64,000 bases of DNA from Candidatus Poribacteria bacterium. Lineage in GTDB: Bacteria > Poribacteria > WGA-4E > WGA-3G. Shown one piece after another: positions 15,582-22,371 of the stretch. Within the stretch, counting starts at the first letter, position 1. Each line of letters starts with the position of its first letter. The notes beneath the pieces are model-generated. The model was not told the origin of the DNA, searched no databases, and saw nothing but the letters and a program-made list of their open reading frames with translations. Location: positions 41,821 through 105,820 of the forward strand of contig JAJEGI010000103.1 in the NCBI GenBank assembly GCA_022819945.1, written 5' to 3'. Made by a program: the position numbers and the translations under genes.

Positions 15582-16199
15582 ATGGGATTCAGGTTAGGAG
15601 TTGGTGGGAGATTGAGTGATGGAGAACTCGTGGAAGCGTATCGAAAGGAAGACAAAAATGCGTGGGATACGCTCTGCCAGCGATATACACACGAACTTTT
15701 CGAGTTTTTCAATGGTAAGGTTAGAACCCGTGAAGATGCCAAAGACCTCACGCAGGATACGCTGATTGAGGCGATGCGTAATATCTCGCAACTTAAAAAG
15801 CCTGAAAGTTTTCGCGGGTGGCTTTACAAGATTGCACACGGCCATTTAGCGAAATATTTCAGAGACAGACGCAAGTGGTGGATTTCCGAACCTACGGATG
15901 ACGGTGTGCTGGAGACGAGAGCCTCCTACGCTGCACCAACGGATCAGCAACCCGACAATCTCGTGATTGCGCAAGAACACTTGGAGATCGTCCGGCGTTT
16001 AGGAGAGGAGCTGCCGAAATCGGAACGTGAAGTGTTCCGATTGAAATTTGCGGATCCTGAGATGCCGCAGAAAGAGATAGCGAAAATATTGGGTATCTCG
16101 GTGGATGCTGTGAAAACTCGATGGCGGCGCGGTAAGCAAACCCTCCGAAAGCAGTTGGAGGCGAAATATCCGGGTGAGTTTACTTATCTGTTTAAGTGA
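15582..16199 (+). CDS. ECF-family RNA polymerase sigma factor
   Basis: Region 2 (DLTQDTLIEAMRNI...WLYKIAHG) and region 4 (EREVFRLKF..PQKEIAKILGISVDAVKTRWRRG). The true start may lie a few codons downstream. Confidence 0.85.
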   Translation: MGFRLGVGGRLSDGELVEAYRKEDKNAWDTLCQRYTHELFEFFNGKVRTREDAKDLTQDTLIEAMRNISQLKKPESFRGWLYKIAHGHLAKYFRDRRKWWISEPTDDGVLETRASYAAPTDQQPDNLVIAQEHLEIVRRLGEELPKSEREVFRLKFADPEMPQKEIAKILGISVDAVKTRWRRGKQTLRKQLEAKYPGEFTYLFK

Positions 16200-16212
16200 G
16201 GTGTGATGGGAT

Positions 16213-16584
16213 CCGTTTCCACGCTTGCCCGAAATAGCAATGATGCCTTCTATGAGGGATTGCTATTGTCTTCTCACCCGTTTTCTTGATGGGTTCAGCG
16301 CGTGCTGAATAGGTCTTGAAAACATTTGACTGATAGGTTTTAATATGGTTATATCGTTAATTTCATCTTTGTGGCAACGATACAAGCAGTTAATACCGAT
16401 TGTCCTCCTTGTAGGTGCAGGGGTTATCGCGTGTTTCCTCCCTGAAACGCCGTCGGAACTTGTAGACACACCGAGCGAGACCGTATGTCCGTATCCGACC
16501 GATACGCAACCCTGTCCGTATCAATGGAACAGATAACCGGCGACCTTGAAGAAAGAGGATGTCCAAATAGGAAGGAGAAGGCAA
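16213..16584 (+). repeat. conserved leader, copy 1 (paralog of 19838-20167)
   Basis: Hand alignment to 19838-20167. The core (16314-16584 vs 19896-20167) aligns colinearly. Copy 1 carries an extra stretch of about 40 nt near its 5' end. Confidence 0.8.
16345..16536 (+). CDS. candidate 63-aa membrane mini-protein with C-terminal CPYPTDTQPCPYQWNR
   Basis: ATG start and one hydrophobic helix (LIPIVLLVGAGVIACFL). The same 63-codon frame is open in the paralogous copy (19927-20118), but there the first codon is AGG. Confidence 0.35.
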   Translation: MVISLISSLWQRYKQLIPIVLLVGAGVIACFLPETPSELVDTPSETVCPYPTDTQPCPYQWNR

Positions 16585-19837: not shown

Positions 19838-20167
19838 CTTTCCGCTTTTCCCGAAATACGGTTTCCTTGAGGTGTTGAGTGTGTGCTGACTTGTGTCTTG
19901 AAAACATTTAGCTGATAGGTTTTAATAGGGTTATATCGTTAATATCCTCTATATGTCAACGCTACAAGCAATTAATACCGCTTGTCCTCCTTATAGGTGC
20001 GGGGGTTATCGTGTGTCTACTCTCCGGAGCGACACCTAAAGATATAGACTCACCGAGTGAGAGAATCTGTCCGCATCCGACCGATACGCGACCGTGTCCG
20101 TATCAATGGAACAGATAGTCGCCGACATCCAAGACAAGGGATGTCCGAATAGAAAGGAGAAACCGAA
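19838..20167 (+). repeat. conserved leader, copy 2 (paralog of 16213-16584)
   Basis: See copy 1. Contains the 63-codon open frame 19927-20118 with no canonical start codon. Confidence 0.8.
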
Positions 20168-21166
20168 ATGTTGAAAGCCCTTTTCCGCAACCGCCTATTT
20201 TTCGGCATCTTTATTTTCGGGTTGCTTGTTGTGATGGGCTGCGGTCTATTTTATGGACGCAAGGTCGCTAAGCAAGCCTCCGTGAAAGTCTATAAACCCG
20301 TCGAAGTCAAGCGAGCGAGCGAACCGAAACCGCCCCCACCGGGCGAGACCGCCGAAAGTGGACACTGGCACGGTGATGAATGGCACAGCGAACCGCATGA
20401 GACAGAGGTCTCAGGTGTGGAATCCCAACCGCAGCATCCGCAACCGGACGCGGAAGGTTTCACAGACATTCCACCACCGATAGAAACACCGGCCGATTTC
20501 GCCAATCCCACCAGCACATCCTCAAATCCGTTGTTTGCCGATGGCGTGCCTGAGCATCTGCAATGCCCACCCGCTTTGATAGGTGTTTATATGAAAACGG
20601 CTCCTCCTTTGGAGATACGTGAAACATTGCTACGAATCGGTGCAGAGGTACTTGAAAAGTATAATCCGAACCGTCCGCTCACTGAAGTCTATCCCGCGTT
20701 TATAGAGGCAGAGAAATGGTATCATGCCAACGCCGACCCTGAACGGGCAGGTATTATGAGTCAGGGGGCAAGCCGAATAGATTGGCAGCACCAACTCATG
20801 TTAGATTTTCCTGAGATTGGGGTGCTTGTGCAGGAAGATCCAGACCGCTCGTTTGCGATGCGACGGGTTGAGTTGGGGCATTGGTCTCCCGACTTCAATA
20901 GGGGGCTGATTAACGGTCGCCCCTTCCGTACGGACGCTGATAAGCAATATGTGTTTACGTGGTCGAGATACACCGAGACCGAGGATGGCTTCGAGACGGG
21001 GACGGGGACGTACATAACGGGTCCCTCGAATGGCGACCCGAACGCCGAAGTCATCGAAATCAACATGGACGAAGTGAGCGATGAAGACCTTGAACGTTTG
21101 GGTGGCTGGAACTACAACATCAACCCTTATACAACAGGGCTATACAAATTAGGAGATAAGCAATGA
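20168..21166 (+). CDS. N-terminally membrane-anchored protein with GHWHGDEWH..HETE motif (family A, second copy)
   Basis: RBS AAAGGAGAAA. The N-terminus and His motif are paralogous to 16585..17427. The C-terminal two thirds are unrelated. Confidence 0.75.
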   Translation: MLKALFRNRLFFGIFIFGLLVVMGCGLFYGRKVAKQASVKVYKPVEVKRASEPKPPPPGETAESGHWHGDEWHSEPHETEVSGVESQPQHPQPDAEGFTDIPPPIETPADFANPTSTSSNPLFADGVPEHLQCPPALIGVYMKTAPPLEIRETLLRIGAEVLEKYNPNRPLTEVYPAFIEAEKWYHANADPERAGIMSQGASRIDWQHQLMLDFPEIGVLVQEDPDRSFAMRRVELGHWSPDFNRGLINGRPFRTDADKQYVFTWSRYTETEDGFETGTGTYITGPSNGDPNAEVIEINMDEVSDEDLERLGGWNYNINPYTTGLYKLGDKQ

Positions 21167-22371
21167 GAAGATTTTCGGCGTTGCTCATTTTTATAGGCGT
21201 GCTGCTTTGGACGCCCGCGGCGATTTCAGCGACGTGGACGGATCCGGGGAAATCAAATAACACTTTTGATTTCTCAGCGACGACCGTCTCAGAGAGCAGC
21301 CATCTTCCGGGCATGACGGGGCAAGCGCAATACTGGCGTGTCTATGGTTCTGCGTCCATCACAGGCACAGCAAACGCCCTTGCAGATGGGGACGAATACG
21401 AGTGTACGTTGTGGTTAGAGGCTTCTGCGGATGTCGGTTCGAGTCCGATTCCGGGTAGGGGTCGGGTTAACATGTCGGCAAAGTCGGGTAGCATCTATTA
21501 CGATAAAGAGGAGAAAGGTGATGCCGGTATTCTGCACAAAAAGCACAATGTTGGTTCCGCGAGCAAAACGTGGTATTATCCCGCGTATACAAGGAACTCG
21601 CTCTCCGATTCGTTATCATACGCTTATAGTAAGCGCAACTACACGAGTCCGACCGGTTTATGTGCCGATCCTCAAGTTTCGGGTTCTCTTTCTGGGGAAC
21701 TCCTGAAAGTGATGGGGGGTGGTGCTGGCGTTTTAGATTCGTTGTCGTGTTCATCGAAGCCGAATAAAGCGTGTGCGACATCGCCGGAGTCTTCGGATAC
21801 GCAAATTCCTGCGGAAATCTGTCGTTGGGGCGCACAGTGCAAGAAGCCTGGGACGGCGACGCAGGACGACTCTCATCAGGTGAAATGTCCCGAACAGGTG
21901 CGGGTTCGTGATGACGGAATCTCATTTTCGACGGAACTCTTTGGTGTGACAAAGTATAAAAAGCAGAAGTGTGGCGGTTCTTGGTGGACGTGCGATAATT
22001 TGGCGGATAAGTGTCCGTTGGCACATAATCATTTGAAGCCGGGTGAAGGCTCTTGGGGAAGGAGTTGGTACGTTGATAATGAGACGGGGGCGCGGGTGTC
22101 TGCGGGTGCCTGTGGTCACTACTATGCGTCGAAATATGCCGCCGATCACCGCTCTGTCTCGTATCCGTGTAGCACTCACACCTATTATGCCTGCCAAACG
22201 CCATCAACTTCGGCTCACTCGCTGCAAGCGAGTTGTTCTTCGACGGATTCTAATGGGAATACCTGCACTGTGACGAGTTTCTATGCGTGTGCTGGTCATA
22301 GTCATTCGTATCTTGCGACAACAGTTGAATGTGGGTATAGCAACTGCTCAGAAATGGAAACTGACAGCTAA
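21163..22371 (+). CDS. secreted Cys-rich protein sharing the C-terminal Cys/His module with 17485..19185
   Basis: Signal peptide MRRFSALLIFIGVLLWTPAAISA. ATGA overlap with the upstream gene. The C-terminus ...HSLQASCSSTDSNGNTCTVTSFYACAGHSHSY matches the 17485 protein. Confidence 0.75.
   Translation: MRRFSALLIFIGVLLWTPAAISATWTDPGKSNNTFDFSATTVSESSHLPGMTGQAQYWRVYGSASITGTANALADGDEYECTLWLEASADVGSSPIPGRGRVNMSAKSGSIYYDKEEKGDAGILHKKHNVGSASKTWYYPAYTRNSLSDSLSYAYSKRNYTSPTGLCADPQVSGSLSGELLKVMGGGAGVLDSLSCSSKPNKACATSPESSDTQIPAEICRWGAQCKKPGTATQDDSHQVKCPEQVRVRDDGISFSTELFGVTKYKKQKCGGSWWTCDNLADKCPLAHNHLKPGEGSWGRSWYVDNETGARVSAGACGHYYASKYAADHRSVSYPCSTHTYYACQTPSTSAHSLQASCSSTDSNGNTCTVTSFYACAGHSHSYLATTVECGYSNCSEMETDS

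Follow-up and report, generated by a model that had tools for sequence, protein, structure and literature searches.

Tandem cassettes of anchored and secreted modular proteins in Candidatus Poribacteria, a possible diversifying effector system

Closest described systems

Polymorphic toxins and effector-immunity systems (Rhs, CDI, MafB and the Tae-Tai pairs of the type VI secretion system, T6SS), the bacteriocins colicin M and pesticin with their immunity proteins Cmi and Pim, GspC of the type II secretion system (T2SS) and PilP of type IV pili, the LAS/M15 peptidases and the CnrYXH metal module are the closest described counterparts of a locus that we describe here from Candidatus Poribacteria. 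The locus occupies positions 15582-22371 of a 64,000 nucleotide stretch of DNA (contig JAJEGI010000103.1 of assembly GCA_022819945.1), in the following called the window. It comprises two colinear units, A and B, directly downstream of an extracytoplasmic function (ECF) sigma gene at 15582-16199, and all genes at 15582-22371 are on the plus strand. In brief, each unit encodes a membrane-anchored protein and a secreted protein with a Cys/His module, and unit A also encodes a GspC-like protein. The features of these proteins show a system that is predicted to be envelope-located, with constant ends, variable middles and one putative endolysin-like zinc peptidase as payload. By analogy we classify the locus provisionally among modular diversifying secreted-effector loci. 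Our reading of the whole, to which we give slightly less than an even chance, is that the cassettes encode diversifying effectors exported through Sec, together with a partner tethered to the membrane and an adaptor to a secretin.

The likenesses to polymorphic toxins and bacteriocins rest on general knowledge of those families. As in polymorphic toxins, constant and variable modules are joined in one secreted protein, a variable neighbour gene is co-inherited with the payload, and there are tandem arrays, orphan or truncated modules, insertion sequence (IS) flanks and recombination at the conserved parts. One payload is peptidoglycan-peptidase-like, as in T6SS Tae-Tai pairs, and the neighbouring partner is predicted to face the periplasm, as do immunity proteins of the Tai/Tsi type. 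The classical layout has a conserved trafficking region at the N-terminus, a variable toxin at the C-terminus and an immunity gene downstream; here this polarity is reversed, with an N-terminal payload ahead of a C-terminal constant part and the partner gene upstream. Further differences are the Sec signal peptide in place of the type V, VI or VII secretion systems, a commonest anchor type that is not matched one-to-one with payloads, and the lack of any known trafficking or toxin domain besides LAS. A preliminary description of the window had called the cassettes polymorphic effector-like; with the polarity reversed, and the commonest anchor type not paired one-to-one with cargo, the term holds as an analogy only.

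Colicin M-Cmi and pesticin-Pim resemble the present system in that a cell-wall enzyme domain is fused to non-catalytic modules and encoded next to a gene for a periplasm-facing protein. Cmi is anchored through an N-terminal transmembrane (TM) helix. Unlike these pairs, to which no sequence or fold relationship is known, the enzyme described here has a signal peptide. The histidine motif at the head of our anchors is absent from known immunity proteins, and in contrast to periplasm-targeting bacteriocins the system resides on the chromosome in several copies, with a GspC-like gene alongside.

Layout of the two units

The open reading frame (ORF) coordinates and repeat alignments bore out the two colinear units behind the ECF sigma gene proposed in the preliminary description, and every ORF was recovered at the position first assigned to it. 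Unit A consists of a leader with a 63-codon ORF, anchor A, secreted protein A and the 168-aa GspC-like protein, in that order. Unit B consists of a leader, from 19861 on, followed by anchor B and secreted protein B. For comparison, 37 sequences, namely the window and 36 related loci (here given L numbers), were annotated with purpose-built hidden Markov models (HMMs).

What the units share is confined to three stretches. One is the leader, at 16280-16623 in A and 19861-20200 in B, with 81% identity along some 340 nt (E 3e-89) and no further copy in the window. Similarity between the anchors is limited to residues 1-85 (38% identity, E 8e-14), and similarity between the secreted proteins to about 115 residues of the Cys/His module (50% identity, E 2e-23), within which a 97-nt stretch has 91% DNA identity. 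Outside the leader, the anchor N-terminus and the Cys/His stretch the units are unrelated, which agrees with the unrelated middles and kept ends described earlier. A modular diversifying system, also proposed at that stage, fits better than simple duplication, because in other Poribacteria, too, 2-5 cassettes form arrays in which the ends are conserved and the middles unrelated.

The searches of Pfam, NCBIfam and PADLOC matched neither the anchor, nor the Cys/His module, nor the small protein encoded in the leader. These three appear to belong to no described family, and for the anchor and the module this confirms the first impression that they are unlike any named family. PADLOC gave no relevant match for any of the 7 proteins, and a known anti-phage defence system was rejected as a candidate for lack of a PADLOC match.

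Secreted proteins and the Cys/His module

Secreted protein A (17485..19185, 566 aa, plus strand) was characterised by AlphaFold2 (AF2) modelling, motifs and profile searches. It has a Sec signal peptide, a beta-sandwich at about residues 30-170 and an LAS/M15-like zinc peptidase domain at residues 172-350, followed by a low-confidence linker and then the Cys/His module (residues 386-566). In the AF2 model (pLDDT 76) the alpha/beta domain at 172-347 is confident and the linker disordered, and the module is of moderate confidence, with values above 80 over the last ~90 residues.

The domain at 172-350 contains the motifs GYRNPHH, R270, S-L-H294-QFGLAL-D301 (H-x6-D) and H343-V-H345. R270, H294/D301 and H343/H345 are invariant in 16 diverse family members, and the zinc-peptidase motifs pointed out in the preliminary description are real. 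By these residues the protein has a complete LAS/M15 (clan MD) signature. The pattern GYRxPxH, S-x-H-x2-G-x-A-x-D, H-x-H and an invariant Arg is shared with VanY, MepK/YcbK and phage L-Ala-D-Glu endopeptidases, and the best PDB, Pfam and PHROG matches fall in these families. In a PDB profile search of the domain the top hits were M15C L-Ala-D-Glu endopeptidases and VanY-like chains (E 0.02-0.65), and a PHROG endolysin family was matched by 5 of 16 members (best 2.2e-6). Secreted protein A itself matched no curated M15 model at E up to 1; among 48 relatives there were sub-threshold matches to Peptidase_M15_4 (10), M15_3 (6, best 7.9e-5) and M15_2 (1). The protein differs from described LAS/M15 enzymes in a long helical insertion ahead of the core, in the beta-sandwich before the peptidase domain and in the Cys/His module after it. 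Motifs and matches together show the unit A payload to be a probable zinc peptidase of LAS/M15 type, a class of enzyme that cleaves the peptides of peptidoglycan, and a very divergent one by sequence. An exact-sequence look-up of the window's own secreted protein returned no record.

Secreted protein B (21163..22371, 402 aa, plus strand) has a signal peptide, an N-domain unrelated to that of A and the Cys/His module. The same N-domain type recurs beside B-type anchors in loci L003 and L005. The protein ends inside the module after ...VECGYSNCSEM, which is HMM position 113 of 179, and lacks the final ~70 module residues, the most widely conserved part. Its stop lies 4 nt from the convergent anmK gene, and we found no remnant of the module downstream. 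The close homologs P0070 (482 aa) and P0056 (624 aa) have a longer C-terminus. The earlier statement that both secreted proteins end in a common module is correct as to the presence of the module in both, and needs amending for B, which stops within it and not at its end. Unit B looks like a partly eroded, decaying copy, because its small frame starts with AGG and secreted protein B stops inside the module.

The Cys/His module has 11 conserved Cys and one invariant His, and contains no recognisable eukaryote-like domain. A profile of it searched against 1.84 billion representatives gave 319 proteins (50%-identity cluster representatives) at E up to 1e-3. The unit also exists as a repeat protein alone, since the very long proteins P0271 (1840 aa), P0302 (1292 aa) and P0280 (1010 aa) consist of 12-19 tandem copies.

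Anchored proteins

Anchor A (16585..17427, 280 aa, plus strand) was characterised from 230 homologs, motif conservation and an AF2 model. Its gene is preceded by a strong ribosome binding site, GGAGAAGG. The protein has a cytoplasmic tip of ~8 residues, a TM helix and the His motif GGHVHSDGTWHPGLHETE at residues 68-85. Anchor B (20168..21166, 332 aa, plus strand) has the same N-terminal module with the His motif GHWHGDEWHSEPHETE, and an unrelated ectodomain of a type that is also found in L003, L004 and L005. The common N-terminus of the two reads MLKxLFxNRLF, TM helix, GHxHxD(G)xWH..PHETE. The one-TM anchors with this motif, reported in the preliminary description, are present as such in A, and in B the motif is GHWHGDEWH, one residue shorter. 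A peptide representing the anchor His motif is DTSQGGHVHSDGTWHPGLHETE.

Across dozens of paralogs the head MLKDLFSNRLFIGALAFFVL..GG.LY is kept, as is DTSQGGH[FV]H.DGTWH..PHE at about residue 70; H70, H72, D74, H78 and H82 are invariant or nearly so. In the AF2 model of anchor A (pLDDT 85) the TM helix extends to residue 55. Beyond it lie the His motif, modelled as a hairpin of weak order, then a disordered linker and, at residues 113-279, an all-alpha ectodomain. Foldseek retrieved only ARM/HEAT-type solenoids for this model (probability up to 0.97, E 0.17 or higher). As solenoids are the only, weak, matches, the modelled ectodomain indicates an ARM/HEAT-like binding scaffold and not an enzyme.

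GspC-like protein

The third gene of unit A (19284..19790, 168 aa, plus strand) encodes a TM anchor and a T2SSC-type homology region (HR) domain (IIENNLFRPLGW...YRLTGTI...). Its TM helix is LLIAGAFVLVVIVLAV, and the layout fits a short cytoplasmic N-terminus, a TM helix and a periplasmic HR domain, the inner-membrane arrangement also found in GspC and PilP. PF11356 (T2SSC) was matched by 11 of 11 family members tested (best 5.4e-5), which upholds the GspC/PilP-like gene proposed for unit A; a precomputed PF11356 assignment exists for 8 of 75 homologs. In known systems the T2SSC-type HR domain contacts the N0 domain of the secretin. In contrast to GspC and PilP, the protein has no PDZ match or coiled coil after the HR domain, the chain ending ~15 residues past it, and it is encoded outside gsp or pil operons. 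By its sequence we regard it as GspC-like, not as a GspC. The gene follows an anchor/secreted pair in at least 11 loci, and we know of no description of a GspC encoded next to cargo genes.

A prepilin peptidase gene, a small point in favour of the export route proposed below, is present in the window at 32128-32916, 12 kb away. A literature search gave nothing pertinent on type II secretion.

Distribution, gene order and arrays

All named sources of the homologs of the anchor (230), the secreted protein (73) and the GspC-like protein (75) are Poribacteria. When 185,579 species, each represented by a single genome, were scanned with two peptide patterns from the anchor N-terminus, 31 loci were confirmed, all in metagenome-assembled genomes (MAGs) of Poribacteria; as just two patterns were used, the scan reaches only fairly close relatives. 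The building blocks of the cassettes are, as judged from these searches, restricted to Candidatus Poribacteria. No paper in the literature that was searched joins Poribacteria with ECF sigma factors or polymorphic toxins.

The triad anchor, secreted protein and GspC-like protein is found, in this order, in the window and in L001, L007, L009, L011, L014, L016, L017, L021, L031 and L032, and with diverged Cys-rich tails in L013, L022, L025 and L034. In several genomes it stands alone among genes that by eye are housekeeping-like. The comparison shows this triad to be the core unit, and expansion takes the form of arrays of 2-5 anchor/secreted pairs. In the closer relative L001 an additional anchor directly behind the sigma gene precedes the A and B units known from the window. 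L005 belongs to a closed genome of 6.67 Mb and shares synteny with the window, including the downstream genes for AnmK, NamZ and a beta-lactamase-family protein. Its five cassettes, three of which have an additional gene in the middle, come after a sigma gene, and are followed by a transposase and another sigma gene. L003 has 4 cassettes, an orphan tail module (19468-20013), flanking transposase genes and no sigma gene.

Homologs are thus adjacent elsewhere, as the preliminary description had led us to expect, with 30 anchor/secreted pairs among the loci examined. In these pairs similar payload N-domains go with similar anchor ectodomains in 10 of 12 comparisons, a linkage with a Fisher p of 5e-8 that is uncorrected for shared ancestry. 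The A-type pair, a solenoid anchor with an LAS protein, is also found in L001 and L002, and the B-type pair in L003 and L005.

The constant ends behave differently from the middles. Over the last 45 residues, identity is 98-100% among the five secreted proteins of L005 and 100% between two of those of L003, in both cases despite unrelated N-domains. L007, a second locus in the same genome as L005, has a different tail (18-33% identity). Anchor heads are closer within genomes than between them (median 0.78 vs 0.56). Because tails and anchor heads are most alike within arrays or genomes, we take the constant ends to be homogenised within arrays, either through gene conversion or through the insertion of cassettes by recombination.

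Leaders and the small membrane protein

The non-coding 5' part of leader A (16200..16344, plus strand) presumably holds a promoter or operator. Alignments show it to be conserved from 16280 on with the leaders of unit B, L001 and L005, and near 16235-16267 it contains the inverted repeat ATAGCAAT-N17-ATTGCTAT. The conserved non-coding 5' part of leader B, aligned with leader A, is at 19861..19926 (plus strand).

The 63-codon frame of leader A (16345..16536, plus strand) encodes a small single-pass membrane protein of 63 aa, in which the TM helix comes after a short N-terminus and is followed by an acidic tail with CPYPTDTQPCPYQWNR at its end; it was assessed by cross-locus conservation and the ratio of nonsynonymous to synonymous substitution (dN/dS). 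Its counterpart in leader B (19927..20118, plus strand, 63 codons) is open and 70% identical to A, with AGG in place of ATG and no ATG, GTG or TTG ahead of 20011. The preliminary description had placed the frame in both leaders: it is intact in A, and in B it is open without its ATG and probably inactivated or non-canonically started.

Small ORFs of this kind lie directly upstream of anchors in L001, L005 (3 copies), L007, L009 (2 copies) and L022, with the consensus ..KQWIPLVILIVAGVIVCLLSAATP.D.D.PSE.ICPYPT...PCPYQW.R and only 7-16 residues ahead of the TM helix. All copies are open and end at the same position. In distant comparisons dN/dS is 0.11-0.25 in this frame, and the two alternative frames give values near 1 and greater than 2; between two close copies it is 0.3-0.7, which is uninformative. 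Given the conservation of the protein across genomes and the low dN/dS in distant comparisons, we take the 63-codon frame to be a real gene for a small single-pass membrane protein. The leader had no Rfam match, neither at the gathering score nor at E up to 1. A structured RNA was rejected as an account of the leader on the lack of an Rfam match together with the cross-genome conservation of the protein and its dN/dS.

A second leader type (L005 4380-4438 and 14846-14904; L007 about 9720-9778; L022 about 150-215) has a 10-bp inverted repeat, GGCGGATTGC...GCAATCCGCC, just ahead of the small-ORF start. It is partly kept via G-U-compatible changes in L007 and L022 and could be an operator or an RNA hairpin. 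In L003 another ORF for a 65-aa signal- or TM-peptide (MFRKILLIFLFC...CETPDCEK...) follows each of two secreted-protein genes (11902-12099 and 14905-15102). The two copies are almost identical and distinct from the 63-aa protein, and may represent a further small cassette component.

Sigma factor and regulation

The gene at 15582..16199 (plus strand) encodes an ECF-type sigma-70 factor of 205 aa, identified by Pfam and TIGR02937: Sigma70_r2 was matched at 5e-11 with 42.6 bits (cut-off 24), Sigma70_r4_2 at 1e-10 with 41.4 bits (cut-off 25.7) and TIGR02937 with 90.5 bits (cut-off 42.9). It agrees with the definition of ECF (sigma-70 group 4) factors, which have regions 2 and 4, lack regions 1.1 and 3 and measure ~200 aa, and by sequence we regard it as an ordinary member. 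Orthologs lie directly upstream of cassettes in L001, L005 and L007, and other sigma-family genes in L014 and L025.

There is no cognate anti-sigma gene next to the sigma gene, and no anti-sigma domain match among the downstream proteins. An adjacent anti-sigma gene is common for ECF groups, and not obligatory. The anchor and the small protein were rejected as anti-sigma candidates, their cytoplasmic segments being too short and domain matches lacking. Neither leader contains a sigma-70 consensus promoter. That both leaders belong to the regulon of the 15582 sigma factor, a possibility raised before, finds no support, in that a canonical ECF promoter motif is missing and most related loci are without a sigma gene. 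It should be noted that ECF promoter motifs vary between groups. Adjacency in six loci makes control of the cassettes by ECF sigma factors plausible.

In L011 (8243-9223) and L021 (8398-9225) an ORF upstream of the anchor resembles, by eye, a fragment of a sigma-54 activator (GAFTGA-type AAA+). The regulator upstream of the cassettes may be interchangeable, with an ECF sigma factor in the window and a sigma-54-activator-like protein in L011 and L021.

Proposed function and alternatives

We suggest that the cassettes work as follows. The secreted proteins would reach the periplasm via Sec, where the tethered anchor would hold, chaperone or neutralise the cargo through its protein-binding ectodomain, possibly with a metal-bridged contact between the His motif of the anchor and the Cys/His module. 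A secretin-type outer-membrane channel may then receive the cargo by way of its constant tail and the GspC-like adaptor. The released proteins would act outside the cell as diversifying effectors, the peptidase being an antibacterial one. In the genome of the window the adjacent ECF sigma factor probably turns the operons on. The co-occurrence of the His/Asp cluster of the anchor, the Cys/His tail and a zinc enzyme suggests that metal handling may be part of the mechanism.

A bolder proposal, which we consider unlikely, is that Poribacteria have an export logic of their own. Diverse payloads would be carried on a constant Cys/His 'handle', homogenised within each locus, that is read by the GspC-like adaptor of the cassette; the His-motif anchor would stage the cargo, possibly with shared metal coordination, and gene conversion at the constant ends would let payloads be swapped. 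If this is true, the cassettes would be a constant-region/variable-region effector system, for which we know of no described counterpart, and a rare T2SS-type pathway with a defined transferable secretion tag. A tail that acts as a tag read by the GspC-like adaptor would bear on substrate recognition in T2SS and offer a portable tag.

Several observations weigh against diversifying effectors exported in this way. All PF11356 scores of the GspC-like family are under the gathering score of 27 bits, genes for a secretin or other gsp components were found neither in the window nor beside any cassette examined (some loci by eye), and the arrays of 4 and 5 cassettes in L003 and L005 are without a GspC-like gene of their own. 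All M15 matches are below the curated thresholds, which also sets the peptidase apart from described LAS/M15 proteins, and whole-chain Foldseek searches of PDB and BFVD recovered only Ig-like beta-sandwich matches to the N-domain and not the LAS fold. A secreted peptidoglycan peptidase must still cross the outer membrane of its target. The PPPxGYxY type of anchor ectodomain (15 members) accompanies at least 10 payload types; strict toxin/immunity cognacy is therefore disfavoured, and for this anchor type we rejected it. A sigma gene is directly upstream in only ~6 of ~27 distinct loci, and neither window leader nor the region upstream of the sigma gene contains an AAC-N16-18-CGT ECF motif. Finally, all genomes are uncultured MAGs and the cassettes are known from sequence alone.

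The first of the alternatives is housekeeping envelope remodelling. The anchors would be membrane-tethered regulators or scaffolds that position periplasmic hydrolases, such as the LAS endopeptidase, on the cell's own peptidoglycan, the GspC/PilP-like protein would be a periplasmic scaffold, and the ECF factor would respond to envelope stress. The LAS/M15 signature is that of cell-wall endo- and carboxypeptidases, every component is envelope-located by its sequence features, the peptidoglycan-recycling genes for AnmK, NamZ and a beta-lactamase-family protein come next after the cassettes both in the window and in L005, and ECF sigma factors often control envelope functions. We nevertheless hold this explanation to be improbable, as copy number ranges from 1 to 5 at the same site among related genomes, some modules in the IS-flanked arrays are orphaned or truncated, and the majority of payload domains have no relationship to one another or to any hydrolase family; the recycling genes point towards the cassettes instead of running in their direction, and do not occur beside triads in other genomes. 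A little less credible again is a host-directed role or surface display, in which the Cys-rich tail is an extracellular, disulfide-stabilised module for display or adhesion and variable heads meet sponge matrix or cells, their diversity being due to host-symbiont co-evolution and not to warfare between bacteria. It would agree with the confinement of the system to sponge-associated Poribacteria, with the adhesin-like array of up to 19 tail repeats in very long proteins, with the Ig-like beta-sandwich of the unit A secreted protein and with fn3 domains in one family member. However, the best-characterised payload is endolysin-like and has no obvious host target, the tail resembles no eukaryote-like domain, and nothing tethers the secreted proteins to the outer surface.

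The near-invariant H70, H72, D74, H78 and H82 of the anchor, the 11 conserved Cys and invariant His of the tail and the zinc-enzyme payload of unit A bring to mind a CnrYXH-like metal module. The small protein would be the anti-sigma factor, the anchor a metal sensor or metallochaperone and the Cys/His-rich proteins its metal-binding clients. The gene order also recalls cnr, with a sigma gene next to those for a small protein that crosses the membrane once and for a periplasmic protein that is anchored at its N-terminus and bears a His cluster. This is quite unlikely: the small protein has a cytoplasmic segment of 7-16 residues, too few to bind a sigma factor, whereas the sigma-binding segment in Cnr has ~30-45. 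Most cassettes are without a sigma gene, no homology to Cnr proteins was detected, no metal-transport genes were found nearby, and the variable ectodomains and payloads would be left unexplained. Very improbable, finally, is the view that the leader is a cis-regulatory RNA (a riboswitch-like 5' untranslated region) and the duplication a recent tandem copy in decay. The 81% nucleotide identity of the leaders does exceed that of the flanking coding DNA and includes the non-coding 5' 65 nt, the unit B copy is without a start codon, close copies have a dN/dS of just 0.3-0.7, and both leader types have hairpin-forming inverted repeats upstream of the small ORF. Against these stand the failure of Rfam to match even at E up to 1, and a frame that is open with the same end in all copies and whose protein is kept while the DNA diverges. 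A recent tandem copy does not agree with middles that are unrelated rather than diverged, or with the orthologs that each unit type has elsewhere.

If the cassettes are indeed Sec-exported effectors, they would make up a major, fast-diversifying part of the means by which Poribacteria compete or interact in the sponge mesohyl. Three of the five component families (anchor, Cys/His module and small protein) are unannotated and together have several hundred members, forming a conserved lineage-specific genetic system in a dominant uncultured phylum of sponge symbionts. Strings of 'hypothetical protein' genes in Poribacteria MAGs become recognisable as an operon type.

Neighbouring genes in the window

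Upstream and divergent from the cassettes, a gene at 11120-14197 (minus strand) encodes a 1025-aa protein whose N-terminus is of the ECF sigma type, with 29% identity to the factor encoded at 15582, and is fused to a TM segment and a long stretch of WD40 beta-propeller. It adjoins a likewise divergent gene for a 355-aa signal-peptide WD40 protein at 14363-15430 (minus strand). The pair is syntenic in L001, and similar sigma fusions flank the cassettes of L006, L010, L025 and L026. A second sigma fusion of 989 aa is encoded at 53045-56014 (plus strand); ECF sigma regions 2 and 4 make up its N-terminal part, and a Peptidase_M61 N-terminal domain comes later in the chain.

The peptidoglycan-recycling trio AnmK, exo-muramidase NamZ and beta-lactamase-family protein is encoded at 22376-25918 (minus strand), convergent with the cassettes, and also follows the L005 array. 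The gene at 3809-10054 (plus strand), conserved upstream in L001, encodes a 2081-aa protein with a gingipain-type Peptidase_C25 domain, a propeptide and a C-terminal FlgD_ig domain. Its C-terminus looks like a C-terminal domain of the type IX secretion system (T9SS) style; to our knowledge the phylum is not known for T9SS. A lone TnpB/Cas12f-like protein (OrfB_IS605 and Cas12f1-like TNB) is encoded at 33185-34480 (minus strand), adjoining the prepilin peptidase gene. A 1150-aa protein encoded at 49431-52883 (plus strand) has as its sole match a C-terminal AbiEi_4 antitoxin-type helix-turn-helix, and a HepT-like toxin ribonuclease gene is located at 2037-2510 (minus strand).

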